From Yuukianura sp. NJ FZ-2021 (Eukaryota), in the NCBI GenBank assembly GCA_046563655.1, contig CM102288.1, forward strand, positions 1,984,001-2,048,000: a stretch of 64,000 nt of DNA. Direction: 5' to 3'. This document shows, in pieces, positions 1 to 33,300 of the stretch. Every line of letters begins with the position of its first letter. The first letter of the stretch is position 1. The position numbers and the translations under genes are program-made. The notes under the pieces were generated by a model. That model did no database searches and had not been told where the DNA came from. It worked only from the letters and a program-made list of their open reading frames with translations.

Positions 1-3000
1 ATTTCCTTGTAAATCCAGTTTTCTCAAAAACGGAATTTCAATTGTCGGTAAATTAGATACATTCGTGTAGGCCATATTCAAAGTCCGAGTTGTTTTGGGT
101 TCATTGAGCAGCGTCATTTGGGCTGCAGGAGACAACGGATTGTAAGAAATGTCGAGATGCTTGACATTTACCAGCACATTTGAATTTGGCGGAACAGTTG
201 AAATGGAATTATTGGCTAAAGACAGTTTTTCTAAAAAGAAAATTTGTGGTTGAAGTGCAACTGTTGGAAATTCATGCAAAACGTTATTGCTCAAGTCAAT
301 TTCAATCAATCGCAGTACAGTTGTGCGTGCAAAAAGTTGCGGCGGAAGAGATGACAAGTAGTTACTGGCCAACTTGAGCTCAAGTCGAAACAACCCGCGA
401 AATAAATTTTCATCCAGTTCTTCTATCTTGTTTTCCGATAAATCCAGGATTTGCAGTTGAGATGAATTTGAAAACGGTTCGATCGGAAGAGTTTCAATTG
501 CATTAGAATTTAGTTTGAGAGAGCGCAGACGCGGGAAATTTGAAAACGAAACTTCATGAATATGGCGTAACATGTTACGTGCAAGTGAAAGTGAAGTTAG
601 GGTATCCGGTGGAAGTGACTCCATAGGGAAGAAGGTTAACTGATTTCCAGAAATGTCCAGTGAAGATACTGCGGAGATATTTCCAAATGCTTGTGGGAAT
701 ACATACGTTATTTTGTTATTTGCGAGTGACAGGAATTTCAGGGCCGGAAAAGATCCCAAAAGGCCGCGGAACGAACTGAGTCCGTTTCCCGCCAGCATCA
801 GCGATTTCAAATTTTCAGCGTTTTGTAAAAACAGCGATTCTTGGAGATTGGTCAATTGGTTTTTGCTTAAATCCAGCATGCGCAGTGATGGAAGTCCACT
901 TAAAGGCTGAATTGCGCCGATTTCGTTTGAAGACAGATTCAACCATGTCAGAGCTTCCAAATCTTGGATTTGGCTGAAATCTGAAATTTTGTTGCCAGAG
1001 AGGTCAAGGTGGGTCAAATGCTTGAGTTGCTGAAAAGCATTGAGTTCTAACTTTGATACTTCGTTGTTCTGGATATGAAGACGAGTCAGTTGCGGTAAAA
1101 GTAGAAAATTATGGGACAAGATACTGCCAATATGATTGTGTGATACATCCAGAGTATGCAAAAGTGGAAGATGTAGACGCGGAATGGACGTGAGATTGTT
1201 TCGACTTGTGTTGAGGTCAAGCAGTGACCCTGGCCAGTGCAGTTCTTCGAGCGACTCAAGTTGATTTCCATGCAAATTCAGATTTTGTAGTTGCACTAAA
1301 TGTTTAAGCGATTCTGGAGGAATGTGTCGAATGAGGTTATTGGCTATGCTGAGTCCAGTTAGATTTGTAGTAGGAATTCCTTGAATTGCTGTGATTCGGT
1401 TGAAATCAAGATGGAGTCGCTTGAGGCCTAAAATAGAATGGAGTGAGTCCATTGGAAACAGAAGGAGGTTGGTATCGGACAAATCCAACGTTCGGAGATT
1501 CACGAGTCCATGAAACAATTTTTTCGGTATCTGAAAGTACAAAACGAACAACAATTTTAGTTGAAAAATTAGTTGAAAAGGGTTTTAGCAAAATTTCAAA
1601 GAATTTTGACGGTTTGACGTACAATGCGCAGTTGATTGACAGAGAGGTCAAGCGTTTCTAAGTTTCTGAGATGCATGAAAGCATTTTCAGGAATTGACGT
1701 CAAACGGTTCCTGCTGAGGTACAAACTAGTGAGACTGCGCAGAGGTGCAAAATCGTCTGCACTGACATTGTAAATCAAGTTGGCTGACAATTGAAGTCTT
1801 TTCAATCGAGGGAATTGACCTAACGAATTTCTTGGAATTTCACGTAAAAAATTGTTGTCTAGTGCCAGTTCTTCTAGAGAGGTCAATCCTAGATATTGAA
1901 AAATTTAGTATGAACTTTAAAAATTTTAGAATTTTTTTTTTTCAAAATGCACCCAAATTGAAATTTTGAATTTGATTTACCTGTAAAAGCGTCTGAATTG
2001 ATTCGTTGAAGATGATTCCAAGAGAGTAGAAGAATTTTGAGATTCTCCAGTTCCCTAAACGCTCCGGAGGCCAAAGCGCTGATTTTGTTTCCAGTCAAAT
2101 TCAAGTGCACGAGACTCCGTTGGGCCGAAAAGTCACCTCGCCCAATCTCCTCTGTTTCAAAATTTTGAAATACTTAGTTTTTCCAACTTTTCAAAAAGTT
2201 CTAAAAAATTCCAGCATTACGTATTAAATTCTCGCCGAGATTCAGCGTTCGCAAGGATTTCGGTCCGTTCAAAGCCTCTGATGGAACCAAATTCAATTCA
2301 TTTCCATCTAAATGGATTTCCTACAAAAATTAAAAAAAAAAATCTTGGTTTAAAAAAATTGTTTAAAAAAAAGTTTTAAAAAATAGTTAAGAATTTTTGT
2401 TTACCTGCAGAGACAGAGTTCCCTGGAGCAGGCCATTGTCAATTTTACGGATTCCGTTTTGCGACAAGCGCAGAACCCTGAGACGCGGAAGTCGATTGAT
2501 TTCTTGTGACGAAAAAATCGGATTCAGTTGATCTCCAAGCAGATTTTGCGAGAGGTCAAGCAAGGTCAAGGTTTCTCCAAGACCTTGCAGTGCTTTGTCA
2601 CTTAACCTTCTTAAATTGTTATTCGAAAGATCCAAATGTTCCAGTGGTACTCCAGAAGCAACGAATGCCTAAGACGCCATACAAATAAAGTTGTACACTC
2701 ATATGCCTAAAAGCGTCAGCACTTAACAGGTAGCACGGTGAAAACGATCTGATCAAAAAACGAAGAGGTCAAAAATAAGTGAACCAATTTGATCAAAAAC
2801 TGAAAAGGTCAAACTGTGAAAATGTCATTTACAAATAGTAAGGGGTTAATTTTGTCAGTCTAAATTTTTTAATTTTCTAAATTTTGGCTTTTTCACTTTT
2901 TGACCAAATTGTTTTCGACCATATTGCATCGCACCTCCTAAACCAAACTTATCGTATAACCTGTTGTGGAATATGTTGAGCCTTGATTCCTCGCCATGAA

Positions 3001-3242
3001 AATTCGGTAATCGGTTGTTTTGGTGGTATGGTGGGGAAGTCTTGCTGAAATACGACACCGTCACAGTTCACTTTCAGCGTCTCCTTGAACGTCATTGCGC
3101 AGAAGCAGTGCGGTAAAGCTCCTCCGACATTCGGAAACTCCGTACAGTACGTCCAGTCCTCGTCGTCAAACGTCTGTGACCGTCCAGGAGTAACGAAAAG
3201 AATGAGTAGGAACAGAGTGAGTGTCACCGTGACCTTGGCCAT
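1..3242 (-). CDS. Secreted/cell-surface leucine-rich repeat protein, chaoptin/artichoke-like; multi-exon, 3' end runs off the window
   Basis: Signal peptide (MAKVTVTLTLFLLILFVTPGRSQ), Cys-rich LRR N-cap (PHCFC...VNC), then many LxxLxLxxNxL repeats over several exons. A long open exon from ~1530 to position 1 (IPKKLFHGLVNLRTLDLSDTN...FLRKLDLQGN) is absent from the ORF track because it has no stop in the window. Confidence 0.9.
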
Positions 3243-5493
3243 TGTTGACCACTTCTCTGTCAGAAGTTGAAGACTGAAGATGAGACTTAAACTAACGTTC
3301 TTGTCCGTGTCAACTGAGGAGGAAGTCCATTCGAATGTGTGGATTGTTCAAGTGACTGAGTCTGGGTCAGGAAGATAAAAGTCCCGTATCCGCCCCAGGG
3401 AACTAAATTCCTTGGTACATCTTGGCCGAAAATGTTCACAAAAACCAGAGTCCATCATAGTAAGTAAAGGGAGAAGATCATTTTTCATTGTTAAGAATGG
3501 GATGAGGAGGCCCAGTTAAGTTACTCCCTGCTTATTCTTGCCAACATTATGCTGGCAGTATTCCTTATCACAGCATCACTTGAGTAAAGTGGTGTAGTAG
3601 TTCCCTTGGGTGCTGTTGGGTGAGTAGCCGAATACGTCGACTCGAAGAACTTAACTTCAAAAGAAGAAACTTTCACTTTTCTGGGTTAATCGGTGTCCAA
3701 TATCTAGAAACAAACAAAACGAGACTGTTAAATGGTTAGCTTTTTAACATGCTAAATTGAAAGGCATCACGCATCACAATTGCATGTTTATCTGAAATTT
3801 GATCTATTTGGTGTCATCTTATGGAGGAAGAAAGCGAATCTTTTTTCAAAGATCACGAAAAAAGTTAAGCAGTTAAATTTTAACCAAGAAAAATTGAATT
3901 TGTCATTCACTCCACTGATGATCAAAATCCAGGTCAAACTTTATTGTCAAACTTTTGCAGGTCGCAGGGATTTGCCAAATTTTGCATATTTTTCAAAAAT
4001 CAAATGTGAGACTTTTATAGAAAGAAGTTTTTTTTGTTTTAGTTTTTGGAAAAAGTTGGTCTTCTCTCACATTTCATCTTTATCTCGATTTTAAAAACTA
4101 TGGTCTAACCGCAAAGTGGAGATGACTGATCGATCACCGCGATGACCTCTAAAGTGAAGTGACGAAGATGATGGAATCCCCATGCATTGAATTGGACAGA
4201 TGAATGAGACTAAACCTGTTTTAATCTTCCGTGATCCCTGGGATGTGCGAATGACATTTGCACCATGTTAAAAGATGCAAAGATAAAAAAATAGGAGCAG
4301 GATCATTTTGGCATTGACTTTTTTTCTGAATCCAGAAGTGACTTGGTCCATTTCATTGTTCCAAAGTGAGTAATTGAAGGCCGATGTGATTAATCATAAA
4401 ACTAGGAAATGTAGTTTAAGGTAAAGATGCAAGAAGGACGCTACCGAGGTCAAATGAATGGAAGAAGGAGATTTTGATGAAGGATTCCTCACCCCGACTT
4501 TTTTGTTTTTCCATTTCATTCTCCCATTTAAAAAGTGTCGAGAAGCTTCCCTTTAAATCTCTGGTTGGACTAAAACTTACTCCAGTCTCCTACTTTACTC
4601 TTGCGTAATCTCGGTCCATGTTGCCACTTTTCACATGACCTCTCATGACCTCTTGACGTTTTAATAAACTTACGTCAGAGTTAGTGCATTAAAACTTAAT
4701 AAGTTATTGTAGAAGTATAATTTTTATTATTTATTTACGCTGTTATTTTAAAAAGATTTTTTTAATTCAAACAAAACTAAATCATAATTATTTTCATAAA
4801 AATAGAGATTAAATTTACATAAAAAAAAATAAATTAGTAAAAAAAAGTTTGAGATAATACTAAAAAAACAAATTGAGGTAAAAGTGATCAAGTCCTTCAA
4901 TTGGCACAAGGTCAAGTAAGATTTTGGCTCTCATTTGCTGCATTGTGACTGTAATAAACCTGCAATTTGTGTACTACCACAATGCTTGTCGAGCGTGCAA
5001 ATCAGGTCAAAGGTCAAAATTCACGGTTGAAATTATTTGAAGCAACAACTTTTGTGTTGAAGTGGTTCAGGAATGATTTATTGGCGTGTGGCCTTAAGGT
5101 CAATTAAACTGCCTAGAGATCCAATTGTTACGTGACTTTTGGCAACAGAGGAGCTGAGCGAGGGGTTAGAGTGGGTAGATGCTACATGGGTTACACAATA
5201 ATAAGAGATTGATACCCTTGTTCCGCTACTCCCTCCCTCCCACACACACAGACACAAAACACAAACAGACAGCACACACAGCTGGAATACCGTTTTCAAA
5301 TTAGGCTAACTCCAATTAGTAATTGGGACAACTCATCCTTCCACTATTAACTAGCAGCCAGATGCTGGGAATCGTGTCACAGTAATCTCATCTGGACCAA
5401 AACCGGTGCTCTCATCTCTTGTTCATCTATAAGTCTGAAATCTCCTCTTCTTGAGACTTCACTGGACACGGAAATACGACATCTTCAAGAGGA

Positions 5494-7115
5494 ATGCAAA
5501 AATCAGGAGCAGGACTGTTGGAAATTGGCGTGGAAGGGAGAGCAAGGTTGCTTGCTGATGATTCCATTGAAGGTCATTTTGATATCGAAAAGTTGGCGTT
5601 CGCCAGGTCAGTTAATCATAAGTTCTCGTATAAGCGATAACCATTTCCAATTCCACGTAATTCATTTGATGAGGATTTAAAGATTAAACGGGATTCATGT
5701 GTTGGTTTCAGGGGAAAGTTCGCAGCAGTTCGTCGTGCCTTTCGTAAAGATGATTCGTCCACATTTGCAGCCAAGTTTGTCCGGAAGAGACGTAGAGTCA
5801 GCGCCGAAGAGGTAAAAAAATCCTATAAAGATTGATGAATCTCTGATTTACTACGTAGTTGAATTGTTGATTTAGATTTGGCATGAAGTCTGTGTCCTCT
5901 GGAAGTCTCGTGACTGCCCGTTCATTGTTCATCTTTATCAAGTATTTGAAACTCCACTGGACACAGTCCTGATCCTAGAAATGTAAGTTTTTTTTTCTAA
6001 TTCGGGTAATAATTTAGTGTGTTATTCTTTAGGATTAATTAACTGTGCTTTTAATTCAGGGCGGAGGACGGTGATTTACAAACACTCCTTGACAAACAGG
6101 TTAATCCTTGGATTATAATTTTTAGTAAGAGGATGGATTTATGATTGATTATTGATGTTTAATCTTTTGCACTTTAGGAGTTTTTGGAAGAGAGTCTCTG
6201 CGCTGACGTCCTCAGGGACACTCTCAAAGGTCTCCACTTTCTCCATAGCCATTCAGTCGCTCACTTAGATATAAAAGTAACCATTGTTTTCATTATAGTC
6301 AAGTTAAATATAACTCAAATAGTTAGCAATTTCACATTGAGTTTTTCATAAATTGGATTTCTCTTTTTAGCCCGCGAATCTCCTTGTTGTAAGAGGCCCA
6401 CCACCCAAGGGCCGAGTTAAAATCTGCGATTTCGGACTGAGTCGACATATCACTACCAAAACTGAGGTAAGAAAATGATTTTTTATTGCTTCGCTTCATC
6501 GCTTCCCGGTAAAGGTCATGTTATCATTTTGCTCACAGATTCGTGAATTATTTGGGACGATTGATTATCTCTCTCCGGAAGGTAAGATTAGCACTATTCT
6601 AAATCTTGGGACTACTGAATGTTGCTTTAACTGTTTATATTTTGAATTGTAAGTTCTCAATTACGAGCCTCTGAGCCTGGCCGTTGACTGTTGGGCAATT
6701 GGAGTGCTGACTTACGTCCTTCTGTCCGGTGTCGTTCCATTTGGAGGTGACAGTAAACAAGAAATCTACCTCAACATTTCCACAGGAAGTCTCTCATTTC
6801 CACGAGCACATTTCCACAATGTCTCTTCCCTTGCCATTGACTTTATTCGACGTCTCCTCAGAATTCAACCAGCGTAAGACATTTTTCCATTCTAGACGCT
6901 CATTTTGTTTCTAGAATTCTAAACAAGGCTTGCTTTCTGTTTTTAGAGATCGTCTCACTGCTGAAGAAGCACTTGAGCACGTATTTATAACTGGAGAAGG
7001 GAAGGAGATCAGTACTGAACCCAATAATAATAGAGACCGCCGCAGTAGTAGCAAAAGTTCTTGTGCTGATGACTTGGACTTACCACAACCAACAGCCTTG
7101 CTAATTCAAGACTAA
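5494..7115 (+). CDS. Drak: DRAK/STK17 (DAPK-family) Ser/Thr kinase, many short exons
   Basis: Spliced translation gives [75 protein letters not shown] and RLTAEEALEH. The FARGKFAAV loop and KFxRKRRR are typical of DRAK. Confidence 0.85.
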
Positions 7116-8143
7116 AATCAACCTAAATATCCAAAGTGCAACATTTGTTCCGTTCCAAGCAATAAGTGGCCACTGGAGAAAGTTCAACGTTCCAAAGTGT
7201 CAACTTTCTCCTAGAAGTTTTAAACAAAAAGTGCTCAATTTTCTACTTTGAAATTCTTCTACAAATTCTTTGGCAGGATTTTCAAAAAGTAGCGAAATTG
7301 AGCCAATTTTTAAAAACATGTTCAACTTTTCCAACATTTTACACTTTTTGTGAAAACAGTAGACAAAAAATTAAGCAAATGGCCACTTTTCTTGTCGAGG
7401 TACTTCCATTGACCTTTGACCTCTGAAACGTTAATTTAAAAAGTTGAGTCCAACAAGTTTTCATTCGATGAGCGTGTAAATAACATAAGCAAAAAAATTG
7501 AAACATTTTTATATTAATTTTAATTTAATTGTAAAAAGGCGAAACTTTTTTTAAACTCTGAACGTAAAGATTTCCAGGATAACAAAAAGTCAACTCAAGC
7601 CTTGTAGACAGAGATTGAGAAATTAGAAATTTTTTAAATAAATCGGATAATTACCACTGAAATTAAAATTTTCATTAACTTCTCTTCATTAGACTCTCCC
7701 TTCTAAAGCTAAAATTGTCTAAACCTATGCGTTTTTGTCACTTGACTAATTGAATTATCGGTACTTACGTGCAACTGCACGACAAGCTGATAACGTCAAT
7801 TTGAAAGTCATGGATTGTCCTGTCGACGTCGGCTCTGTCGCGATTTTTATCAGTAACACCGATAAATTCAAATCGTATTGAACTTTTACATTAATCTTAT
7901 GGCCTCTTAACAACTAACTAGTTAATGTCAAGTTTAACTTTTATATTTTATATTTTTGTGACGCTAAACTGAAAAACTCTTCAGTAGATTTTGGGCACCC
8001 GACAAAAACAGATAAACTTGGGCTACTCAAAGTTTTTTTTAGAAGTTGCGCAGTATAATTTTAATTTTGCTATACAGAATCAGTTAGTTTCTTTGTGATT
8101 TGCAACGGTGACTGCAGATTCAGCAACCTCCAGAAGTACAGTC

Positions 8144-11100
8144 ATGCCGCTTGACAATTGGTCCCGAATTCTAAGCATTCCGGCTGGAGTGTACCACGAA
8201 CCCATGAAATGGATTACATATCAAATCAGCGGGTAACGAAACCAACATTTAGCGTTTTATTTCGAACTTTTCAAAAGAATTCTTGAAAATTCATTGACCT
8301 TGATCCTAACCTAATTTGACTTTTCAATGTTTGGTTTTCAGTTTGGATCCTACAGTATTCGGAGAGCATCAGTTGGAGTATGCGCAAGGACTTGTGGCTG
8401 AATTGCGAAAACTTCTGGAAGAACTTTACAAACAGGAGGGACTTGACGACTGGAGTCGCTTGGCCTTGAAAGATGAAATTCACGCTATTCGGGTAAATCA
8501 AATATTTTTTCGAACTTTCAATTACAGACTTTTTCTGAAAATTGAAAATTTCTGAAAACAATTTCGGAAAAAATTCAGGACAACTAGCCCTCCCCCCATA
8601 CTTGTATGTCAGGTTGAAATTTCTAACTAAAGTTGACTATGATGTAACTTAGCCTAGTTTGCCTAAATTTAACATTAACTTTTAAATTTTTATTGTGTAA
8701 TTGTGGGTTTAACCAGTTTCGGCTAATCAAAAAATTCCATCTTTATGTAACCACTAGCATTTCAGATTACGATTTTTTCCAAAATTATCATTGGTGCGCT
8801 TATTTTGGCCATAATTTATATACTTTTTGTGCAGTCGCAGATGGATGTGCGAAGTGCAATTGGGATGATAATTGTGTGGAATTTTATCATAAATTCAAAT
8901 CTAATCCTAAATTATCCATAAATTTCACAGATGATATCCTAACCTAACCTTTTGTCATTATGTCCTTAGACTGGAGACAGCAAATACTGGTGGTCAGTAC
9001 TCCGTGTTATCAAGGACCTACACTCCAGTTCTCCACAGATCCTCACACCCGGAAACCAAAGTCCAGTGGGCACAACTCCAGTCCTTTCACCTTACGGTGA
9101 CCGCGACGACTCTTCAAATTCAAATTTTGGTGACATGAATCCTGGATACCAATTCAGTACTCTACAACCTCCACCAGAATGTGGATTCTACCAGACTTAT
9201 AATGAAGGATTCATGTCATCGGCCACGTCAGAATTCGGAATACAGTATTGCCCTGTTACAGGATACCCGGCACCTCCGTACTCCTACGCTCCAGCGCAAC
9301 AAAATTACCAACCGGAAAACAGTTACTACTCACCGCATTCCAATTACTCATCATCGGTCACTTCGCCAGCACAACCATGCAGTCCTGCAGAAGTTTACTA
9401 TCAGCAGTTGTCTCCAGAGTCAATGGACGAAGAACGATTCCTGGACCTAGAGTATGCCATACCGACAGCCTCCATGTTGAATTCCATTCGGCGCGAAATT
9501 GAGTCTGTTCAGAAAGATATCCAAATGTGGAACCTTGAAGCGGAAAACAAAGAACGAAATCTGGATGGACTGAGGCACTTGGACACTAATTTTCTAAACA
9601 GTGTTGAAACCAAGGCCAGCCGAGTAGTAACTCAATTGCTGCAAATCCAGTCTGCTGAGGTGACTTTATAGTTAACAACTAATTATAAAAATTTTAATTG
9701 TTGGGGCGAAGTTGCTAAAGTTTTGTTTGACCTTGATCTTAGGCAATAAAGCTGCTGGAGGAATTTGTGGGTCAACTGCTGGTTGTGATTAGACAGCCAG
9801 ATCGGGTCATCCAGTACAAAGAAAGATTTGCAACGACAGTGAGGCTGCTACTGGGCAAAGATGTCGTGGCGACATCAGCCAAGTCGAACATTGTGTCGCT
9901 CAAGGTCATCAATGAGGAGATGAAAGAGCCACTTGAAAAGGGACTCGGAGGCATTCCGGAAGTAAAGCTGGAACGAGCTGGAAACGGACTTTCGGCTGAA
10001 CTACTGTGAGTTTTGTCCAACATTTCAAAATTTTGAAAAAATTTCAGGATTTTGAAAAAAATTCAAGATTTCATATTTCATATTTTCGTTTTTTAGACCA
10101 ACGATTCCGAAAAATCCAAAGAGATTGAACAAGGCCAACAATCCAGAAATCCTGAGAGTTCACGACGAAAGTTTCTTTTTGCAGTACACAGCAAAAATCA
10201 AGCTGCAAAATTACGGCAAAGTTCTTACTGTAAGTGTCAAAAATTTCAAAATTTCAAATTTTGACCTTGACCTTTGACCTCCATTTTTCCAGGCTTCTAC
10301 ATATTCACATCCGGTCAAAATCACAGTCAATTCTAAACAAGATGCCAATGCTTGGGAAACTATTATCTGGGACAATGCTGCCAATCGGTTCGGAATCGTT
10401 CCGTGTCGGTCGAGACCCCAGTCGCTACCGTTTTGCGAAATCGTGAATGCCGTCAATGCTTACTTTCGTGACACCCAACACGGGCTGGAGTTACGTGACT
10501 ACGAAGTGGTCTTCGGTCTGTTGAATCCCCGCTATAGTCCAAGGTTTGCCAGTGACAATGGCCAGGAACACATAACTTTGTCACAGTTTCGAGTTGAGCA
10601 GGAAGTTGCTGGGTTGAATTTGGATCTCAAAGATATCAAGAAGATCTCCTACTGGGGCTGGTTCTTCTACTTGAAAAAATTTGTCACAAGTTATGTCCGT
10701 GACCTCTTCAGAGAGTAAGGAACAAGATGCCACGTGATCTACCTTAACGCTAATCTGACGACACCAATCTAAAGTAACATTTTGTTTTAGTGGCGCCATT
10801 ATGGGGTACTTGACGCAAGAAGAATCCAGGAAACAGTTAGCACAACAACCCGACGGTACTTTTTTGATCCGATTTTCAAATTCGTCTCCTAATGCTGTCA
10901 CTATCGAATGGTGTGACCCTGGATCAGCTGTTAAAAAACGTAATGACTAAAACTAGTTTCCGAAAATGAAAAAATTTTCATCACTTTCGTTATAAACTGT
11001 TAACTTTTTTGTCATTCCAGCTGGAATCTACGGCTACAGAGGCAGTGCCACTGACCTAGTTCTGCGCAGTCTCAAAGACAGAATCATGGACAGTTCACGC

Positions 11101-11274
11101 TGGACAATCCACCATCCGTCCAAACTTCCCAAGGAAACAATGCTACAAAAATCTCCGTGTGGATTTGGAACTGGAGAACGTAGGGATAATGCAGAAGGCG
11201 GAAAAGCAGAAGAGCTGCCGCGATTGGTCGGTTATGTTCGGGCATTCCTTCAAGCTAAACTGGATTTCAATTAA
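8144..11274 (+). CDS. Divergent STAT-family transcription factor, 8 exons, ~716 aa
   Basis: Exons 8144-8232, 8342-8492, 8970-9659, 9743-10005, 10097-10229, 10293-10714, 10791-10939 and 11021-11274 join in frame. DBD start LVVIRQPDRVIQYKERFATTVRLLLG, linker AWETIIWDNA, SH2 GAIMGYL...QPDGTFLIRFSNS, DLVLRSLKDRI, and C-terminal GYVR phospho-Tyr motif. Confidence 0.9.
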
Positions 11275-11678
11275 ACGTCTTTTTATTCTGTGATTTTCGT
11301 TTTTCAGTTTTTTCGAAATCGTATTTTTTTAGATTGAAATTTAGAGCAGAATTTAGAAAAATGCAAAATAAATCTTTTCGATTTCTTTTTTACGTCTACG
11401 CTTTGAATTACGTCCAAAAATTGTTAGAAAACATTAAAAACTAAACTGAAATTAAAAATTGAAGAACAAAACTAATCGTAAGTAGAATTGTGTTTTTAGC
11501 ATTTGAATATGTTTTATAGATTTATGATTTATGATTTATACACTAAAAAACATAATTAATTTGGAATAATTTGTTAAATTTTATTTTGCAATGTTAATAC
11601 AACCTTGTGATTCCAACAAATGGAAAAACATTTAACATCAACTATTAATTTCTTTGTCCAATGTTATTTGGCTTTTTT

Positions 11679-14375: not shown

Positions 14376-17300
14376 TTAAGGGATCCTTGGTCCTCTACTG
14401 CTGGTATGATGATGATCTCGTTCAAATCCTTGGTTAGTGTAGTGATGCGGATGCTGATGATGATTTGTTGATGTTGGGCTTCCCTTGGACGTTTTCCTAC
14501 GATTTTTCTTGGAGAGACTTGATTCTGTGGAGTCTTCGTCAGCAGAAGTTCCAAGACCCAAGTCACGTTCCAGTGAAGGTCGTTTGGAACCACCGTTGTT
14601 CATAGTGACGCGTGGAATTGGTAGGAACTCTCTTTTGACAAATTGGCCTTCAATGAAACCAAACTCACGTCGTGCATCAGCCGTCACTCCTCCTCCACCT
14701 AAAATGTCCACAAAAAATTTCTTGTTTTAGCATTCAAGTCCAAAAGTAATTAAATTAGACAGAATTAATTACTAATGGTAGGTGCTATTTCTTTAGTTGC
14801 GTTAGTCAAAACTTGCAATTCTTGACTAAAGCCCAGTTCACAACAATTTTCTAAGTAAAGCCAGCTACACACAACACTCACGCAGGAAATTAAACACAAG
14901 AAATTTTGTTTAAAGTAAAGCTTAGTTCACACCAAATATTGTCTTAAGCCCAGTTTGCACCAAATTCAAAAATTTTGAAAATATATTATTTTATATTATT
15001 ATTTTATTAAATATATTATTATTTTGAACTTACGTTTGGGATCAAGGGCGTCCGGCGTGAGAACAAACGAAAACGGCACCACTTTATCCTTGTTCTTATC
15101 CTTTGGAACTTCCTCCTCCGACAGCGAAGCGCATGAGCCAGGTCCAAACAGCGACAAAAGTACTGGCAGTAGTACAAGACCGTGCAGCGCCGCGATGACA
15201 ATCACCAGAAACACAACTTTGAAAAAAGTGATGAAAATATACGAAGGGGCTACCAGGAGAGCCAAAACTCCCAGAATGGTTGAAAGTGCTCCCTGGACAA
15301 TCGGTAATCCCAGGGAGTAGAGACATGCACGCACTCTTTCCCGCGGAGAATTCTCCCTGCAGCTCATGTACGCGTAGGAGATGTGGGCCGAGAAATCCAC
15401 TGAGAATCCAATACACATGATCAGATTGATCATAGAAATTGCGTCGAGGTTAACGCCCCATAGACTCATGAAGCCAACGACTCCCACTTCGATCGACACA
15501 ATAGAAAAGGCTACCCAGAGAGAACAAAGAAGATTGGGAATGAAGATGAGTGAAACGGCCATCATGATGAGAGCGGCAATCAGGACGCATTGAATTGACG
15601 TTTGACGAATCAGCAGGAACTGATCGAAGAAAATGAAGAAGGGATGGTACACGGTCTGGAAAAAACGCAGAAACAAAAGATTTAGAGAAAAGAATTTGAA
15701 GATGAGGTGTGAAAAATTACACTTTGCATAAAATGTAAAAATAAAAATAGCATTTGACGCAAGGCGAGGCCAAAAACCTTGGAAAGTTGCACCTTTTGTT
15801 AGAAGTTCGTTTCATGAGAAAATTTCCCAAGACTTTTGCGTAGGTTCTTCCAAAAAAAAATTAGATGGACAAATTTTTATGACGATTCTTTGAAAATTAA
15901 TTGGTGATGTCAAGTATAAGTACTGCGTGCAGCATTGCACATATGCATCTCGCCTCTGCTTCATCTTTTCTTTTACAGTTTTTGTTCCTGGTTGTGTGAA
16001 TTTCTTCAACTGTTCCTGATGTAGACGATTACTAATTAGGAATTTAAATTGGTGACGACGTAACTCCATGAATGAATGGCTACAAATCTTTGTTTGAAAT
16101 CAAAATTTAATTTCTGCTAGTCACAAAAGTTGGTTTAAATTGAAAAAGCAAAAGTATGGGGGGTTTCTCTATAGCAATTCCGTCAAGATTTTTTGCTGAT
16201 ATGTAATAAATTGGAATTCAGACAAATTTTTTTCATAAATATTACATTACTTTGTGCAAAATTTGTGAAGTTTTCTTTAAGCTGTGTTTTCAAATTTCAA
16301 GAGCAACTAGTATGTAAATATATTTTTGGAAAAAAACAACTTAAAATTTTGTGAATTACTAAAATTCTGGGAGTGAAACTACTCCTTAGTTTTGGAAGGA
16401 AAAAAAATGAAACTTTGAAATGAGTTTGACCTCAAATATTATCATGCAAATTTGAAACAAAAGTCTGGAAATTTTCAGTTGTTCGGAATTGTGCATTGGC
16501 TATGGGGGGTACGTTCAAAATTTTTGAATAGATTTTCAGCCACTGGCAAAAATTTTGGGTGAACCATTGTGTGAACGTCATTCATCGTCAGTTTGAAGTT
16601 GAAGTTCATTGGTTTTCGTCTAAGCATTTTGGGTCTTTTTAGTTTCAATTTCAAAATTTCAAAAATTTCAAAAAAAAAAAAGTTTCCTAATTCAAAATTT
16701 TTGTTTCAAAAATGTTTCGTTAAATTACATCTAAATGTAGAATCTTACCACATTGAGTCCTTCTTGTGCAGCCGCAATAGCTCTGAGTTCCATGGCCATG
16801 TCCTTTTCATCGTTAGAGTCAGTGATGTTAATGGTTTGGACGATGAATCTTGAGGCATTGATTCTCGTTCTGTCAGCATTGAACTTGACGTCGTCGTAGA
16901 AGGGTGACGAAGGATCAAGGTACGCATCAAACAAAGTGTCCACAAACTCCTTCTCTGTTGTAATGTTATAGTCAAAGAGTCCTTGTGACCTCTCCACGTA
17001 ACCAAGGAATGACCTGAGCCAGGATTCGGTGTACAGTGACCCCAAGTTGGCCCCGTGTTTCCCACGCACCCATTGACTCGCTTCTAATTCGCTTAGCAAC
17101 TTCTCAATCCGTTCTTGCGTCACTACTGAAGAGTAGTCCATTTCTCCACTCACAACGACCTAACATTTTTCAAAAGAACTTTCGTAAATCGTAATTCGTA
17201 TGTCGCAGTTTCATAAATCTTCATAAACATCAACATCTTAAGGTGATTTGGCACTGCGTACTGCTTTAAAACATAAAAAAATGTTATGGGCGTGGATAAT

Positions 17301-20300
17301 AGTGGACCAGCAGCAACAACTGCTGACGTCACCGCCAAAACACTGGAAACCGGTTTGGTTTGAAGTGAACCCGACTTGTTATGGTTAATGACAGAAAGGA
17401 ATACCCGGATGTAGAATTTGAATAAAATTTAATATATTAAAATATTATATAAATTAAGTACCTGGATCCTGTAGGGATACTCTCGGAAGTACATGTCTTC
17501 GCGGTCAAAGAACGTTACGGCATAAGAGTCATAGAGAACCATACGGCGACGTTCTAGGCCTTCCTGGATTTTGGTTGTTCCCCAACAGGCTACACCCAAG
17601 TAGCCCAAAAATACTGCCAGCACAAGTACTTTCACCAGTGGAAAGTTGAGGAATGCTGCCCAGTAGTCTCGGAAGAAGATCATCAACCCGTGATCCGGGT
17701 TGTCTTTGGGGTGAAACGGATCTTCTTTGGTTATTCCTCCAGTACAGAATGCTCTGTGCCAAAATGATTTTGATCCTAGGAGGGAAAATTTGAAATTTTG
17801 AATTTGAAATGAAGTTCATTAGGAAAGTTTTTGCAATTTAGTGACAATGAGGTTTTCTGGAGATGACAAGTGACATTTGACCTTGAGTGAAATACGATCT
17901 TACCTGCCTGTGACCTGGGCGTGGCTTGTCGACAGAAGATGAGGGAATGCTTGTTGTCTTGTTCATGGTAGCCTGCGATGGCAATGGCCCCACCGAAGAA
18001 GAAGATGTGCCACAAGTATGTCGCTACGACGGCGGCTCCCGAGTAGATTGAAAAAATTTGGACGCAGGGAAATGGCGTAATGACACCAACCCAGAATGAC
18101 AACATGTCAGTTATGGAAGTTATGGTGATGGACACTGCTGCTTCGGAGTAACATTCGGCCATGCGTTTAGGAACAGGATCATGGGGGGACGTACGTCGCC
18201 AGGAAGCCAACATTACAAAAGTATCGTCAATACCAATTCCTGTAAAAAAAAAAGAATGAGAAAATTGAAACATGTAAGTTCAAAGCCATTCAAAAATTCT
18301 AGAATTCCAACATACGAGTTTTAATTTTTGAAAATCAGTTCACATGTTGCCGTTTCGGGCTGCATCTAGCTTTTTGAAAAATAGTTGTAACTTGAGGCAG
18401 GAATCAGCATAATTTTTTAAAAACTCTCGCCATTTTTTAATCCAAATGGAATAAAAATCTTCCTTTTAAAGCATTACAAAAAAAATCGTAACTTCAGTGT
18501 AAGCTAACACTCGACTTTCCAAAAAAAGATGAAGTTTAAGTTCAATTTTTCAAAAAGATTGCGTCATTGCAATTTTTTGCGCTTGCAGCATCTTGAAATT
18601 GAATCTTGAACGTGGAAATTCCAAAGGCCAAGATTAATCTTTCTATTCAGCAATTTCAGCACAAACAAAAAATCCCTCCATTGTTTAATACACTTGAAAA
18701 TCCACATCTTCCAAATTCAATTGTACTTTTTTTAGCCTAACCAAAAACTCAAAGACGCACATCGTAGTGTTTAGCAGAAGCAAAAACTTAAATTTATCAT
18801 TTTTATTTTTACTTTTTTTCTTCAAGCCCATAAAAACTTTAGTAAAAACCCCACCATTTTGAATCTTTAAAATTCTCTTTACAGAGTGAAGCATGTGCCC
18901 AAACTCCCAAAAAATGTTACCAAATCATCTCAAAATTTGCGTCAGAATTGAGCAACAAAAGAGATTAAGTTTTTGGCGTTAAGTTATGTGTGTGATGCTT
19001 GATGCTGCTGGTGATGGTGGTGGTATGAGTCAGTTTAAGTGGTACATTTAACACAAAATGAATCAAAAAATCCTTCTTTTTTTTCAAAATCCCATTGTTC
19101 TGACGACACCCCCCTTAATTCTTGTTCTTTTGTAATCCTTTGTCTTTTATAAGAATAAGAGGCCTTAAGTTATTCTAAGGGCTTCCCTCGACCTCTAAGA
19201 AAAACTTGACACTGATGATGCAAAGTTGCATTAGTATTGGTTGACTCATCCAAAAGGGAGAGACCTTGGCCCTTAAATCTCTTTTGTTGTAACCAATTAT
19301 CGATTTTTTTCAATTTTGATTTACTAATCGATCTATCAAAAAATTCTGAAAACATTTCCATCAAAATTTGCATTTTAATTTTCCAAATGCATGATTTACT
19401 AAGTTATTGCGAAGTTATTCATTCAATCATGAGGGGGTTGTACAAATTGTTGCATTTCGCAGACTAATATTTTTATTGAAATTTTTACTAATTGTTGCAC
19501 TTAATTCAACAAAAGTAAAGTAAAATTGCACATAAGAGGCAACAATGAAAATGAAAACCTGGTTTGTTGGTGTTGATTACTAACTTTTGGTTATACTTTT
19601 GTGTAGTGTATGCAATTGTATTTCAAATGAATATATTTTTTTTAAGGAAAACAAGTTTCTTTCTGTGGCCCAGTGCGCCTGACCCAGTTGGAAGCAAGTC
19701 TTAAGGGAAAGTGTAATTCACTTTAACTATTTTTTTACTTTAGTCTGTAGGACCCCCTCATACACTTTAGGTCATCGACACTTTTTTCGTCAAAATGAGC
19801 ACCCCCTGACCCCCCATATCACCAGAACTGACCAATTGACCAAAGGGGTGCACTGGTCTAGACCAGAGGGGGTGCCATGATTGACTTACTAAGAAGCTCA
19901 CCTTTGCTTTATGATCTTTCTTCATCATTCCCCCCTTTTACTTTAAACGTTTTTAATATCAAATGACTGATGATGAATGTTAAAAGTTGGAAAAACAACA
20001 CGAGAGGAGAGGAAAAAGTGTCTTAAGAGGTTTGCTCAAGGCCTTGCAAAATTATTGCCAACTTAATGCCGTTTCCTCACTTGATTCGACAAAATGGAAT
20101 AAAGCAAAAAGCTACCACTACTGCTGCTATTATCTTTTGCAATGGCTTGACTTTGACTCTGGGCGTCCCAAGTGTAGTAGGTGATGATCACTACAAAAAT
20201 TTAGCAATTGGGGTATGTGAATTTGGCAATTGGCGAATACCACAGCCGTTTTTAAAGATGCCAAAGAAAGTCTAAATTTAGAATCCAACGGGCGACACAC

Positions 20301-22126
20301 TTTTGGCGACCTACAGAGTCCACCAGCCTCAAAAACCTCAAGACACACTTCCGAAGTGTCAACAATAGACGATCAAGTGCCAAAATTTTGCCTGTCAGGG
20401 TTAAAAGTTTGCAAATTTTTTGCATATTTGCAAAAATTCTGTAACGTCTAACCGCCTAACAAACATTATTTAACACAAATCCTGCCTGATTACATTTTGA
20501 GAAAACAGTTTTTTTTTTCCTTCCTGACTATCGTCTGTTTTGATTTTTATGAAAATCTTCGTTGCTTTTTTCGCTTACCGAGCATCAAAAATGGAGCCGC
20601 CATGTTGATTCCAATGAATTCTACTCCGCAGTAGCACACAAGTCCGAATGCTGCCAAGCATCCGAGTACTGCCGACACGACGCCCATAATCCCTAGCCAT
20701 GGTTTGGACTTGACCCAGTCTCGCATCATACACGTTCCAACAGTAAAAATGATCATGAGCACTACAGTGACTGAGAAGTATGGAAATACTGAATAAGTAT
20801 TTCTCTCCAGTTCAGTGGCAAGCGTTCGCACAGTAAATTTTGCTACTGAAATTTCTTTCCAAGTGCCTTCCAGCGATTCCAATTTTTTCAAAACCGCTGC
20901 TTCCCAGGCTTCACCTCTGAAAAAATTCAAAAAAAGTTTAAAATTTTGAAGAAAAAATAACATTTCAAGAAAATCATGAAAACTGTAAATAAGAAGAGAA
21001 AGCGTTTTCGAAAAACAAATAGAATCAAAAACAGTTTGAAACAAAAGCAGGATTCGACAAAATTAAGAAAAAAGCAAAATTCCAAAAAATTTGAACTGGC
21101 AAATTTTGTTAAATTTTAAATTTTTTTTTAAATTTTAATTTGTTTAAATACATAAGTTAAATACATAAGAAGTTTACCTTCTGTCTTGCTTTGGTGAGTT
21201 CACTGCTAAAAAGTAGTTAAGCTGAAGAGCGGGTACTGACAAGACAGTAGACACATTAGACACTTTGGTTCCACCGAAGAAGAACGGAAATGCATAGGTT
21301 TTGAATGTTTCTGGATTGAGCATAACTGGAAACGTTAGTGAAATATTTCCAGTTTCAATTTTTTCCATCATCCCATCATGTCCTAATTCCAAAACGTCGT
21401 TTTCATAACAATTATCTTCCCATTTGGCACACAGTGTATCGTAACTAAACGATTCTTCGTCCCAGTCAAACTTCACATCATGCATCACTTTGTCCAGGAC
21501 CAAGATTTCGTCCCAAACGGACTTGCGCAGAAGCGTTCCACCATCCAGAGCGACTATAAACAGCCTAAAAATGACCAAAACATTCATAAAAATTTTTACT
21601 TTGAATTTTCTTGAAAAGCTGAGTTTTTTTTTAAATTTTATGGCACATCATGTCTTGAAAACAAGGAAATAGATTTTAAGTGAAAGTGGACAAATGCGTA
21701 GGTGACCTTCTGTCCATTTTTGTACTGAGAAGGTCACCGCGTATCGTTTTGTCATTTTGTTGTTGTTTACTTTTACAAACTTTGTTTGTTCCGGGGATCT
21801 TACCTAGCAAATCTTCCTGGACGGACGAATCTTGAGGGATTGAAGCGTGCTGAGTAGTTCATTGGAAAGTTGACCTCGACCAATTCTCTTTCGTATTTAC
21901 CGAGACCATCCACAGGGGAAAAGAGATACTCAGGGTCATCTACGTAAATAAACCGCTGAATCCCAGTGCCAAGGAGTAAGGAAATGAAAAACGGAACGAC
22001 CAGGAAGTAGGATGGCCTTTCTCCGATTTTTCTACCGAGCCAACCAAATAACCTGGTCAACATGTTGTCAATAACTTCCAGACCGCAACCTGAAGACGTG
22101 TGAACTTTGCTTCCAGGAGGTTCCAT
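14376..22126 (-). CDS. Ptr: Patched-related / PTCHD3-like sterol-sensing-domain RND membrane protein
   Basis: Exons encode DDPEYLFSPVDG, SKPWLGIMGVVSA, AAPFLMLG|IGIDDTFVMLASW (GxxxDD), YFREYPYRIQV, and SMINLIMCIGFSVDFSAHISYAY...HGLVLLPVLLSLFGP. The last exon (~14699-14376) joins in phase. Confidence 0.93.
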
Positions 22127-24512
22127 GGTTGACTTGAATGGTTGACCTCCAGCAATGCAGTTGACCTGGAGCTGAAGGTCACTTGATGACCTGTGACCTT
22201 GCTGAGATCTTATACCTGAAAACAAGAAATAAATCATGTCATTTTGACGTAAAACTGTTGTCTGGGCAGGATTATAACATAAGCATTTCTGCTCATGCGC
22301 AAAGTGGCTGAAATTTGAGCCGATTTCTGCGCAATTGTAAGAATTTGCATTTGGTGAAGCAAACTTTACGTTTTTTACGCATTTAGTTTCATGTTGCCAT
22401 CCCCATGTCATGTCATCTGTCTTTCGTAAGTGGTAGCTTACTTTTTTTAAGTGTTACATTGCACAGTAGTACTTTGAAACTAACATTTTTCAGGAAGTTA
22501 CTCAATGAAAACCAGGGATCCAAATCCTCGCGCCTTTTCCTCCCTTAATCTTGAAATCACAGTCCTTACCTTAGTTTTTTGACGTGGCGTGTGCAGTGCT
22601 GACGAGGCTTCCCTTAACAACTGGGCAGTACTTGGCAGTACAACTGGGCAGTACTTGACAGTATTTGAGCCTTGACAAGCCTTGACACTTTGAAGCACAA
22701 AGGGACTGTACTGGTCACTACTGCTAAAAGTACACGTCGGCGCAGTAGACGTGATGCCGTGATATGTGCAGATCCTGTTCGTTCGTTGTATGGGTTTAGG
22801 TTAGGTCAAAACGCCAAGGAGAAAGTAGTAGCAAATGATCATCAGATCAGATATACAAAAGTTTTTAACAAACTCGAAAAAAAACTTAAACTTTGACAAG
22901 ATCAAAAAAGAAAACTGAAAAAATGTAAAAATTTGTAGAATGTTGTTAGCTGGGTCATGTCGCTTCGTCGTCAAAAGTTGAAATCAAATGAAGATCAAAG
23001 AAGAGAGACTTGAAGATTAAGAAGATCAAGGCTACTGTTGTGATTGGATCAAATTTTGAAAGTCAAGCGGCCAATCCAAGGACCTCCACTGTTTTTTTAA
23101 GTTTTTAGCAACGAGGGAGACTTGATTGAGGAAGTGACCTCTGAGGTCACTTCAAGATCAGCAACTTTATCACTTTCTTATGGAATTGGACAATTCAATT
23201 TTTCAAAAAGTTTCACAAAAAGTTGAAAAGTAGAAGGCAGTTGACTCAAAAGTTAATTTCACAAGTAAAACCTTGGAGCACCAAAATGTTGCCAATTGGA
23301 GGTCAATTTGTTTAGTCACTTTTCTGGAAATTATGATTAAGGAGTGACGCTATTGGCTGTTAAAGTGTATAGTGGACGTGATTGGCCAAGAGACTTTGTT
23401 AACTCTTTGAAAATCAAGATGTGACTGAACGTAGAGAGATTTTGGTTAGGTTGAAGCTTTTGCATTGCCTTTTGCAGATCCTGTTAAGTACTACTGTGTT
23501 GTGTACACAGAAGGGGTGGAAAGAGGGGGATGAAAATTTTCACCCCCTCAGAAGTACGCACAGCAGGTTTCCAATTTAGTCTGATGCGGTGGGGTTTTCT
23601 GGTGATGTGTTTCAAAATGCTACTTTTAGCACCTTTGGAATAGTAATTGGAAATGACAAGTGCGAATTAGTTGGAAAATTTCAGTTTTTTTTTTAACTTT
23701 TTAAAAAACTTGTTCAAACAACGTTTCGATTCCGGGAAAAATTCATTCATTCACGTTTTCTTGTATTTACTCAACGCCGTTTGGCTTTAAAACTATTTCG
23801 AAACATGTATGATTCGAAGTTTCAAAAGTTAAATGCATAGGAAATGCTTAAAAAAAATTACAAAAAGAAACTTTTTTTTTGAAAACTTGAAATTTTTTTG
23901 AAAAAATTTAAACATAAATGTACAAGGAGAAAACACGGATGACTTTGAGCAGAAATGACTTTGTATTCATTCAAAATATCAAAATGAGTGACCATGTTTT
24001 TTCCTGTACGTGCACACTTTACACGTTGACCTCTCCAAAAGTTAATTTTCAAAAAAATTATAATTAAAAAAGACAATGACACACAATGGGAGAGACAATG
24101 AAATTGTATAGAAATTGAATTCCTAAACTAATGCATCATGTTATCAAAGATAGTGTGAGAATTTAGTACCCTTCAATTCTAAAATCCAATAAACTTTTTC
24201 TCTTAACCTTCTCCTCTAACTTTAATTTTGATAATTTTCATCATTAATTTTGAAGTTATAAAAATTCGAGAGTTGCGAACTTATGATATGTTTGTGTAAA
24301 TAGGGAATTGAGACGTCAGTGGAAAGCCTTTTGGTACGTGTTTCACTAATTGTGGAAATCCAATTGACTTCTCCTTGGCCCAACCAAGAAACCATGAAGT
24401 GGATACAATTAATTATGAACTTTTATTATTACATCAAATACAAAATGCAAAAGTGTAGAGTTAGAACATGTTTTTATGCCTCAGTGATCTCATGTTGCTT
24501 CAACAATACTTT

Positions 24513-30320: not shown

Positions 30321-33300
30321 ATGCGAGGGTGGTTCGATGCGTTTCGGACTGAGGGTGGGCCGACGCTGTACAGCTACAGCAACCGAACGCCCGTCACTGG
30401 AGACCCACCGACTATCGCCCTCTACGTCCTCTTTGCCACCCTAGGAATTGCATTCCTCATCATCTTCCCTGGAATTCGCAAAGAAGTAAGTCAATTAACT
30501 TAAATCAAGAGTTAAAGAAAAATTTAACACCCAAAACGATCAGCTTTTCATACCTAATCTATGTCCTGTTTACAACTTCTACTTAAAACTTAAATTAACC
30601 AGCATTGCATGGGGAGTTTCTCCTTTTCCGCTATATGGTACCTAGTAATCTCGAATTGTATATTTCGTTAAAAATTCAAAAATTAAATTTATTTTTGAAA
30701 TTTTGAAATTCATCATTTATCTTCTAAAAACGATTTCAGAAAAACAAACAAATATTTTTTTTTGAATTTCAGAGATTCTCCACATTTTCAAGCGTTGCTC
30801 TGAGCCTGTTTGTGGGTTTGGCAATTTTGGGTAAGAAAATGACAATGTCCTCCAAAAACGTTTGTTTTCTATTTGAATTGCAAAGTCATCTTCAGAGTCA
30901 GGCGATTAACAAGAGGGGTACAAAGGGGGGCCCATGACACAATTCTGTCCAAGGATCTTCCTCCTCGGACACTCTGCAAACGACAGAGGGTGGGAGGGGG
31001 TACTTTTTGCAACTATTTGCAAACTAGAGATGACTAGGAGTGAGGCGTCCTTTGCTTTACTCCAAGGCCACCGCCTCCCTCGAGACCTTCAATTTTCATC
31101 ATCATCTTAAAGTTACTTCCTCCTTCCGCATTTTACACCTCCTAAGCACCATCCATGAGAGTAAGTGTGCTTAAGGAGGTGAGAATGACTTAATTGATTA
31201 AGTGATTAACGACTCTGATTACCTCACAGTCTTAACTTTCACTTAAATGCAACTTAAGTTACCTTGGACTGCCACTGGCCTCTCCGCAGAGTAGCGTGGA
31301 AACGGAACCGTGAGAAAAAACATATTATGGGGGGGAAAATAGTCCAAATTGCAAGTTCAAAAATAACAAGCGCAAAACACAAGGATGTGAACAAAAGCAT
31401 AAAATGTACTCAAAACTACACAGAATGTACAAAGTGTATTACTTGATGCATAAAATTTGACTTCCCATTTACCTAATTCTCATTCTCGTTACATAAGTTT
31501 GTAACATTAGTTTTTTGGGGGTAAAGAAGTAACTTAAACGTTTATTGTGTAAGATGTGATACATTTTTGACAAATTACGGTACACTACACGACATGAACA
31601 AATTGGAACAAAGTTTGAGTAGTTTGATGTTAATCGGTTTTTGAATTTGACTTAAAAGTGAAATGTATTATGTAAAAATGTTAAAAATTTATTAAATTTT
31701 TGATTTTTTGATATTTTTAGTGAGCAAATATGGATCAGCTTGGCACGTCGCAGAAACGGAAATCACGACTGCGTACCGTGCGTTCTCTAGAGAAAAGGTG
31801 GCGGCTACCATTGGAGTTCATATTGGCCTCACGCACTTCAATGTCACCCTTCAAGGTAAGCAATACGTTGTGTTGAGACGGATTTTGTGAAGGGAGGGGC
31901 AAATTCCGGAAACGGAACTGAAATTTCCAAAAAAAAAAAAAAAAACTTTTAAGTGAATGTACTTTGAAAATGTAATTTTGAACTCTTGAATAATTATAAA
32001 GTCGTATATTTTCTTTGATTTTTCGAAACAAAAATCGTCATTTAGTCAGAAGTTTGTTGTAGGTCTAAGTATGGACTTTCAATAAGTTTATAGTTTAAGT
32101 TTTTATGTAGTTTTTCTTTTTTACTTTTTTTTCAAAAATTTTTTTTTGTCAAAATTTTGATTTCATAATAAAGTGGAATTATCCATCTAAATCATTGTTT
32201 TGCACAATGATTAGATGGATAATTCTGATTTAAAATGAAAATGTGTCACAGAAAACTGCGGAAAAATTCGATCGGCACAATTGATTTTCAAAAATACTTT
32301 TGTGACCTCATGATTTGCTCAACCTGAAACCACAATTATGTCAATGAATTTGTAAAATGTAACCAGTACCTGTCACTCCTCACTCACTACGGCATGACTT
32401 GTGTCATGGAGTCAACCACTATGACTTCAAAATGGCGTCTGTTGACATCCCAATGTCACAACACAGTTTCCGCATTTTCATGGTTCACAATGTCTCCATT
32501 CTTAAAATTGCTTTGAATTTTAGTCTTTCAACACAAATAGAAATACAAAAATAGCTCAAAAGTCCTCCAAAATTAAAATTTTGCTTTGCTTTTCAGGAAT
32601 TCCCGAGTCGAATGAAACTACTGCCGAAGACATAGACTTTAACGAGCGTTTTTACTGGGCCGAAGCAGATGCAATTCAGCAGGAACTTCGGTTAGCTCTC
32701 CAGAAAGGTCAGTTTAAAAACCATAAACTAATGTTAGGCTAGTTGGTTTGAAAAACCTAACTTAATCTTAGCAAACTTAACATAAAACTTAACTTTTTCA
32801 AAATTTCAAGGCCTGCCATATCCGATTCTGACTGTCGTGGAATACTTTAGTCTGGATGACGAAGGATTCTCGTGGGGCAGAGACTACAGGCAAGGAGGCT
32901 ACTACGCTGGAATTCTTTTGTGGTAAGAAGGTCAATGACCTTGTATATTTTTTGAAAAGTCGGTGACCTTTGACCTCTGCAGGGCCTGTTTCGCTTCCTG
33001 GTTGCTGATGAACCTATTGATAGTCGTGGTACCTCGATACGGTGCGTATCAAATGGTCCTTACGGGTGGCCTTTTGTTGTTTACAAACGCCCTCTACTGG
33101 GCCCTTATTCCTCGGAAGCCTCCGCTCATCCGATTCGAAGATCACATTCTCATTTTCAAGCTAGGAACGTCATTTTGGGTAGTGTTAATTGCAGGTTAGT
33201 GAAATTAACTAAATTTTTAGTAAAGTTAACAGAATCTAACGAAATTTGGTTATTCTTGATGTAGGTGGATGCTGTGTGGCTGTTGGAAGTGTTATTTCCA

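Follow-up and report, generated by a model that had tools for sequence, protein, structure and literature searches.

The order of domains in animal STAT proteins is generally regarded as having been set before bilaterians radiated. Canonical members possess a coiled-coil domain with about 180 helical residues, in which the hairpin formed by helices 1 and 2 supplies partner-binding and antiparallel-dimer surfaces. The isoforms STAT1-beta and STAT3-beta end shortly after the activating tyrosine; they arise by alternative splicing from genes that produce a full-length form as well, and their four-helix coiled coil is complete. Here, we analysed a stretch of 64,000 nucleotides from Yuukianura sp. 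NJ FZ-2021 (contig CM102288.1, positions 1,984,001 to 2,048,000; referred to as the window) and focus on a single eight-exon gene on its plus strand (8144-11274), which is very probably a true STAT family gene that combines a shortened coiled coil and an internal low-complexity region with the lack of a C-terminal activation domain.

Parts of this layout are found in described systems. According to Wang and Levy (2012, PMC3670131), insect STATs have the same domain plan as mammalian STATs, while the Dictyostelium STATs (DstA-D) are without an N-domain, carry low-complexity (Asn/Gln) N-terminal halves and have no C-terminal transactivation domain. The same text describes the C. elegans protein F58E6.1 (STA-2) as STAT-like but highly divergent, with no activation domain and a C-terminus that is very short; this protein is strongly conserved between species, as is the architecture of the window gene. 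F58E6.1 has 567 amino acids (aa) and only SH2 and DNA-binding domains are reported for it; compared by description rather than by sequence, it differs from the window protein in that the published account mentions neither an internal acidic low-complexity stretch nor an N-terminal helical region (PMC3670131). Since accepted members of the family, namely the Dictyostelium STATs and F58E6.1, are likewise described there without a C-terminal transactivation domain (PMC3670131), this domain is not strictly family-defining. The loss of the C-terminal domain has precedents, whereas we found none for a conserved acidic stretch in place of helices 1 and 2: a full-text literature search returned no description of an acidic disordered stretch replacing coiled-coil helices of a STAT.

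The gene was modelled from the sequence between 7900 and 11500 together with its stop-to-stop frames. The spliced coding sequence of 2151 nucleotides (nt) is in frame and specifies 716 aa; all seven introns are bounded by GT..AG and have pyrimidine-rich acceptors, six of them are 63-109 nt long and intron 2 measures 477 nt, and an in-frame stop codon (8096-8098) is located just 5' of the ATG. A family profile made from the window protein, its full-length environmental relative P0006 and the partial relative L001 was aligned with 31 non-redundant arthropod STATs using hhalign, which gave a probability of 99.9% and an E value of 2.4e-33 over 371 columns. Residues 300-709 of the window protein align with residues 316-706 of P0011, a wasp STAT of 781 aa, at 27% identity, and the aligned span starts in the last coiled-coil helix, takes in the DNA-binding domain, the linker and the SH2 domain and ends at GYVRAFL, the counterpart of canonical GYVKPLL. 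The window protein therefore shares a homologous DNA-binding domain, linker, SH2 domain and tyrosine motif with the STAT5, STAT6 and insect STAT92E class, and the DNA-binding domain and linker were also recovered structurally, as the P0006 model matches STAT6 with a Z score of 21.2. The SH2 core and the tyrosine motif had been reported as intact in an initial annotation of this locus, and both are present: GTFLIRFS, with the phosphotyrosine-binding arginine R610, aligns with canonical GTFLLRFS, and Y704 in G-Y-VRAFL aligns with canonical G-Y-VKPLL and with T-Y-VKAFL of P0006. The frame stops exactly 12 residues after Y704, as had been noted, in contrast to about 75 residues after the tyrosine in canonical P0011 (Y near 702 of 781), and neither the transactivation domain nor a complete four-helix coiled coil (STAT_alpha) was found. 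When P0006 was compared with solved chains, STAT5B matched best (E 2e-11), followed by STAT5A and STAT6, and an exon-6 profile gave the same order; in these comparisons STAT3 came up at no better than E 0.89, none of its matched stretches reached the threshold, and STAT1 did not appear. Judged by these alignments, the window protein is a genuine STAT, though one that has diverged strongly.

The relatives were found with an exhaustive HMMER search of 1.84 billion representative sequences with exon 6, which yielded nine proteins at E <= 0.001. Seven of these were examined, P0005 (5,584 aa) being left out: P0003 is a repeat protein unrelated to the family, P0008 and P0009 are fragments of canonical insect-type STATs, three others come from environmental contigs and are short and exon-like, and P0006, an environmental protein of 761 aa, is the sole full-length STAT-like protein among the seven. 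Residues 11-761 of P0006 are collinear with residues 5-714 of the window protein (26% identity, E 2e-56). It has an N-terminal Trp motif (FANWEKIWSLP, compared to LDNWSRILSIP in the window protein), which is followed by a low-complexity stretch rich in Ser, a short helical segment that carries the conserved Trp, the DNA-binding domain, the linker and the SH2 domain, and it ends 14 residues after YVKAFL. A scan of metagenome contigs with a three-row alignment returned only L001 and L002, two different relatives within one metagenome. L001 contains more than 270 Pro/Ser/Thr-rich residues directly before the Trp-bearing helix (IERWKSEEENKE, compared to IQMWNLEAENKE in the window protein), its exon-6 equivalent is 41-45% identical to that of the window gene, and four of four comparable intron positions are shared. 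Word-index protein searches with exon 6 and with P0006 residues 330-761 gave nothing besides P0006 itself, and an Atlas look-up with P0006 placed Rotifera (no Pfam), Arthropoda and Nematoda as the nearest clusters (0.92-0.93), which are leads only.

The locus was modelled from DNA alone and intron 2 is long compared to the other introns, so one might ask whether missing exons would complete the coiled coil or add a C-terminal domain. However, P0006 is encoded as an uninterrupted frame of 761 codons on a contig of 2,766 nt from the Joint Genome Institute (JGI), it is collinear over every exon joint of the window gene, including that between exons 2 and 3, and it has the same end point. It carries extra sequence at none of these joints, which argues against hidden exons, also within the long intron 2. 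In addition, the splice sites are all canonical, the frame closes and a putative polyadenylation signal is present 3' of the stop codon, and we consider an artefact of the gene model highly improbable.

The shortened coiled coil was analysed using two structure predictions, one of exon 3 of the window protein folded with two relatives as alignment, and an AlphaFold2 model of P0006 (48-row alignment, mean predicted local distance difference test (pLDDT) score of 60.7), in which confidence is high mainly from residue 278 onwards. In the P0006 model, residues 102-270 nearly all have a pLDDT below 50 and the only helices before the beta-barrel are 278-312, 321-339 and 345-359. In the window protein, two helices are predicted in exon 3 and a third, at about residues 311-325 in exon 4, is probable from its homology with P0006 helix 345-359. 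Together, this gives three helices with approximately 65-78 helical residues before the DNA-binding domain of the window protein (about 70-80 when both models are considered), in agreement with the estimate of about 75 in the initial annotation, which had also suggested a structure prediction; the latter returned a disordered stretch and only short helices before the beta-barrel. The best fold matches of the P0006 model are the cores of STAT5B, STAT6, STAT5A, STAT3 and STAT1 (Foldseek E 8e-19 for STAT5B to 1e-14), and the solved complex of STAT3B with DNA (1bg1) also appears in the list. With VIA, Z scores of 17-21 were obtained for the model against the STAT6, STAT5, STAT3 and STAT1 cores (STAT6: Z 21.2, root-mean-square deviation 4.7, 370 residues aligned), as compared to Z 11 for the Dictyostelium STAT structure (1uur/1uus). 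The structural alignments start at P0006 residue 269, which corresponds to residue 208 of STAT3, 204 of STAT1 and 221 of STAT5B, and they place W302 of P0006 no more than two residues away from the Trp in ..DWKRRQQ.., which we take to be the canonical STAT3 motif at that site. In a MAFFT alignment, the arthropod form LIRWKRDQQ is found at the position of the conserved Trp of the family. At the sequence level, the similarity of window residues 236-325 to the canonical coiled coil is no better than that of shuffled sequences. Based on the start of the structural alignments and the position of the Trp, the C-terminal part of helix 2 and helices 3 and 4 would be kept, and the stretch would occupy the position of helix 1 and of the beginning of helix 2. 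The models thus suggest that the stretch replaced these helices in place and was not inserted beside a whole coiled coil.

The first 100 residues are more difficult to assign. They had been labelled as N-domain-like, which we could not confirm: there is no Pfam STAT_int match to this region, and an hhalign comparison of residues 1-100 with canonical N-domains, which pairs W23 with the Trp of canonical WIE, scored 15.8, within the range of 30 column shuffles (10.7 +/- 2.1, maximum 16.0). The region is helical in the models of both the window protein and P0006, at low confidence (pLDDT 43-69 in P0006). It might be a reduced N-domain or a set of helices standing in for the missing helix 1; a complex prediction of P0006 residues 1-125 with residues 265-365, which addressed a helix 1 substitute, gave a score of 0.01 and bears neither way.

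The Ser/Pro/Tyr/Gln-rich region of the initial annotation corresponds to a stretch of 142 aa in exon 3, which contains the segment YPAPPYSYAPAQQNYQPENSYYSPHSNYSSS and is predicted to be disordered. Ser, Pro, Tyr and Gln make up 50% of residues 100-235 but 20% of residues 326-716. Within the stretch there are 15 Asp and Glu, 20 aromatic and only two Lys or Arg residues (2/142, compared to 13.2% in the remainder of the protein; binomial P for depletion 4e-7). The corresponding stretches have 23 acidic, 18 aromatic and two basic residues over 162 aa in P0006 (P 1e-7), and 28, 22 and two over 275 aa in L001 (P 1e-16). In all three relatives the stretch is hence net acidic, aromatic-rich and nearly free of Lys and Arg, while neither its sequence nor its length is conserved. 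A composition of this kind is expected of acidic activation domains, and both the composition and the predicted disorder agree with such a domain in the window protein, P0006 and L001. The Dictyostelium stretches differ, as they are N/Q-rich, whereas that of the window protein is acidic, S/P/Y-rich and poor in Lys and Arg; the window protein also differs from the Dictyostelium proteins by a helical N-terminal region, which opens with M..W as is typical of animal STATs. The initial annotation had proposed that the activation region was moved inside the protein. The composition fits this idea in three relatives; the activation role itself is a tentative assignment, and we regard it as a possibility somewhat short of even.

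To look at selection, we used contigs of a second organism (B, DNA run X5), which cover parts of the STAT gene at approximately 2-8% divergence. Between 9210 and 9360, inside the disordered stretch, 12 of 151 bases differ and there are no gaps, and between 9693 and 10019, a piece that spans exon 4 together with some of intron 3, 10 of 327 bases differ. Among the exon differences listed, 11 of 16 are synonymous and five nonsynonymous. As the differences are mostly synonymous, the gene appears to be constrained rather than decaying, which points to purifying selection.

On balance, we slightly favour the view that the gene encodes a functional STAT from an old and very divergent branch, which has kept the SH2-tyrosine switch and uses the internal acidic stretch for activation. 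We consider activation through Tyr704 and the SH2 domain somewhat more likely than not. In this scheme, a tyrosine kinase would phosphorylate Tyr704 and two molecules would pair by reciprocal contacts between SH2 domain and phosphotyrosine. The dimer would then bind DNA through the retained DNA-binding domain, and the internal acidic stretch could recruit co-activators, thereby standing in for the C-terminal activation domain that the protein lacks. Without the helix 1/2 hairpin, its partner-binding and antiparallel-dimer surfaces should be absent as well, and for this reason regulation of the latent state probably differs. Alternatively, the protein could dimerise and occupy DNA sites or receptors without activating, and in this way damp or redirect a canonical STAT of the same genome, which is how the truncated STAT1-beta and STAT3-beta isoforms act. 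In agreement with this, only 12 residues follow Tyr704, a trait that is kept in P0006. In contrast to the beta isoforms, however, the short end is the conserved end of the gene, also in P0006, and the coiled coil is reduced. Such a modulator further needs a canonical STAT partner, which is so far hypothetical in this organism, the identity of 27% to canonical STATs in the core makes heterodimers or shared sites less likely, and the acidic, aromatic and Lys/Arg-poor stretch of the three relatives looks like a replacement activation region. We consider a modulator of this type unlikely.

Several points weigh against the favoured view. Of the Pfam families with which the initial annotation had suggested checking the gene, SH2 was found above its cut-off on exon 7 (E 9.2e-9, 35.7 bits, cut-off 21 bits), but STAT_bind stayed below its cut-off of 27 bits (exon 4: E 1.8e-4, 22.5 bits; P0006: 23.7 bits), STAT_int and STAT_alpha were not detected in the window exons or in P0006 (STAT_alpha none at E <= 1), and exon 6 alone matches no Pfam family. 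The basic residue of SH2 helix alphaA, which is R or K in canonical arthropod STATs, is a Q in the window protein, as is the Lys that canonical STATs have in their V[LM]KT strand (template VMKT, window protein VIQY), and in the SLPxxI..N...W strand P0006 has neither the Asn nor the Trp; the binding of DNA and of phosphotyrosine may thus have changed. The alignment behind the P0006 model contained canonical STATs, and the short exon rows of the window were badly placed in it. The comparison with organism B comprises 16 listed differences, with 28 further rows outside the count and a depth of 2-5, and an acidic, aromatic composition is also compatible with functions other than activation. Moreover, the gene model is derived from DNA, and the window gene could have alternative 3' or internal exons. 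Lastly, F58E6.1, the closest published architectural analogue, did not bind a STAT consensus site, a result given as 'data not shown' (PMC3670131). One might speculate that the window protein acts outside classical signalling from kinase to tyrosine to DNA and has other partners, like F58E6.1/STA-2 in a lineage without JAK. F58E6.1 shows weak scores for SH2 and DNA-binding hidden Markov models, no band shift with the STAT consensus and strong conservation between species in the same account (PMC3670131), and the window protein resembles it in its weak Pfam scores and the two changed basic residues. Nevertheless, the GYV..L tyrosine motif and the SH2 Arg are retained and aligned with those of canonical STATs, and no nematode STAT was recognised among the nine exon-6 matches (P0005 left out, rows without names), which gives no evidence of orthology with STA-2. 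We regard this explanation as improbable and retain the view of a divergent STAT with a working SH2-tyrosine switch as the one slightly favoured.

With regard to the core claim of the initial annotation, a shortened coiled coil, an internal region and a missing C-terminal tail in a true STAT are supported by the profile, the structural models and the gene model. Its description of the gene as lineage-specific did not hold: the same layout is present in P0006, and the internal stretch also in L001. As both share it, the layout is old, conserved in one STAT branch and not an invention of this genome, and the branch has so far been seen in this genome and in environmental sequences only. The gene had further been taken for a paralog. 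It could instead be the only STAT of its lineage, an ordinary ortholog in a fast-evolving and poorly sampled animal group. A layout shared with relatives that are merely 26-49% identical is expected of an old orthologous line, the annotated proteomes of the searched collections contain no close relative, so that the group is undersampled, and a tblastn search with the spliced protein found no second STAT-like sequence in the 64-kb window (other matches E >= 0.17). Yet, L001 and L002 from one metagenome could be either two species or paralogs of one organism, and we consider a sole STAT a serious possibility that falls a little short of being probable. The most far-reaching version, an ancient animal STAT branch in which the helix 1/2 hairpin was swapped for a disordered activation or condensate-forming module, which lost the C-terminal activation domain and which may be the only STAT of its group, appears doubtful as a whole. 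Nevertheless, a conserved branch without half of the coiled coil and without the tail, but with the SH2-tyrosine switch, would show that activation can sit elsewhere in the protein, and with such a branch one could ask in a natural setting why the helix 1/2 hairpin is required. For the moment, the finding carries limited practical weight. Among the environmental fragments, P0007 (74 aa) contains canonical-like VHGSQ and TGRQLT together with family-like AVIWSNAAKQFGI, and P0004 is a fragment of 98 aa. The mix of motifs in P0007 suggests that divergent STATs may form a graded series among small eukaryotes that are not yet sampled, rather than one isolated branch.

Table 1. Features of the STAT gene and of the remaining window (positions within the 64,000-nt window).
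Feature	Position	Strand	Details
Exon 1	8144..8232	+	Start codon; residues 1-29 (MPLDNW...), first N-terminal Trp motif; P0006 starts at the equivalent place
Exon 2	8342..8492	+	Residues 30-80, helical N-terminal region; splice sites, collinear with P0006
Exon 3	8970..9659	+	Residues 81-310: end of N-terminal region, disordered stretch, first two coiled-coil helices
Internal low-complexity stretch, predicted disordered	9027..9452	+	Residues 100-241 (142 aa); composition, pLDDT 33-41; counterparts in P0006 and L001
Predicted helix, C-terminal part of canonical coiled-coil helix 2	9468..9554	+	Residues 247-275 with Trp W266 (IQMWNLEAENKE); pLDDT 69-89; homologous to P0006 helix 278-312
Predicted helix, equivalent of coiled-coil helix 3	9591..9656	+	Residues 288-309; fold of window exon 3 and structural alignments
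Exon 4	9743..10005	+	Last coiled-coil helix (~311-325), start of DNA-binding domain (LLVVIRQPDRVIQYKERFATTVRLLLG); profile alignment begins at residue 300
Exon 5	10097..10229	+	DNA-binding domain, residues 399-442
Exon 6	10293..10714	+	End of DNA-binding domain (SHPVKITVNSKQDANAWETIIWDNAA) and linker domain; profile against STAT5B E 9e-4
Exon 7	10791..10939	+	First half of SH2, GTFLIRFS; phosphotyrosine-binding Arg610 at 10870-10872
Exon 8	11021..11274	+	Second half of SH2, tail segment, GYVR (Tyr704 at 11233-11235), 12 residues, TAA at 11272-11274
AATAAA, likely polyadenylation signal (predicted)	11367..11372	+	93 nt 3' of the stop codon; sequence read directly
Large leucine-rich-repeat protein gene	1-3347	-	LRR_8 E 2.8e-65 on a 528-aa frame running off the window start; probable signal-peptide exon near 3100-3347
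Protein kinase gene directly upstream of STAT	~5350-7115	+	Pkinase E 3e-8, one exon
Patched/sterol-sensing-domain (SSD) family gene, multi-exon	14999-22453	-	Patched SSD E 1.6e-29 and 1.1e-12, two exons
DuoxA (dual oxidase maturation factor) exon	32939-33196	+	E 1.1e-18
Listerin (LTN1) E3 ligase gene	39441-43813	+	Ltn1_1st, LTN1_E3_ligase_6th, UBC_like; unusually long exons, up to 407 codons
Weak CIDE-N match	47821-48135	-	E 6.7e-4, below cut-off
Weak HPS3_N match	58910-62604	-	E 0.0027

Beyond the STAT gene, a Pfam search of 74 further reading frames of the window detected only widespread families (LRR, Pkinase, Patched/SSD, listerin, DuoxA and UBC_like, with weak matches to HPS3_N and CIDE-N), and a search of the whole window against Rfam gave no matches. 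With a listerin exon as query, an Atlas look-up returned bacterial rows only, all of them sub-threshold. The kinase encoded directly upstream of the STAT gene looks, by eye, like a CAMK/DAPK-like Ser/Thr kinase and not like JAK.

In read run X1, which probably derives from the source organism, alternative bases were seen at several exon positions of the STAT gene, for instance at 9030 (S101P), 9514/9515 (K262R) and 9746 (I312L), and these are consistent with a second allele or haplotype. A high k-mer depth at 9989-10105 was considered as a feature of the gene and rejected, as it is due to a short A/T-rich tandem motif. This motif has a unit of 19 nt, is present in 2.6 copies at 10022-10071 in intron 4 and is found again at approximately 10244-10258 in intron 5. 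Its summed k-mer depth in run X1 is about 35,000, as compared to 150-400 elsewhere, it is a site where many contigs are broken or joined, and it is a very abundant simple motif of this genome.

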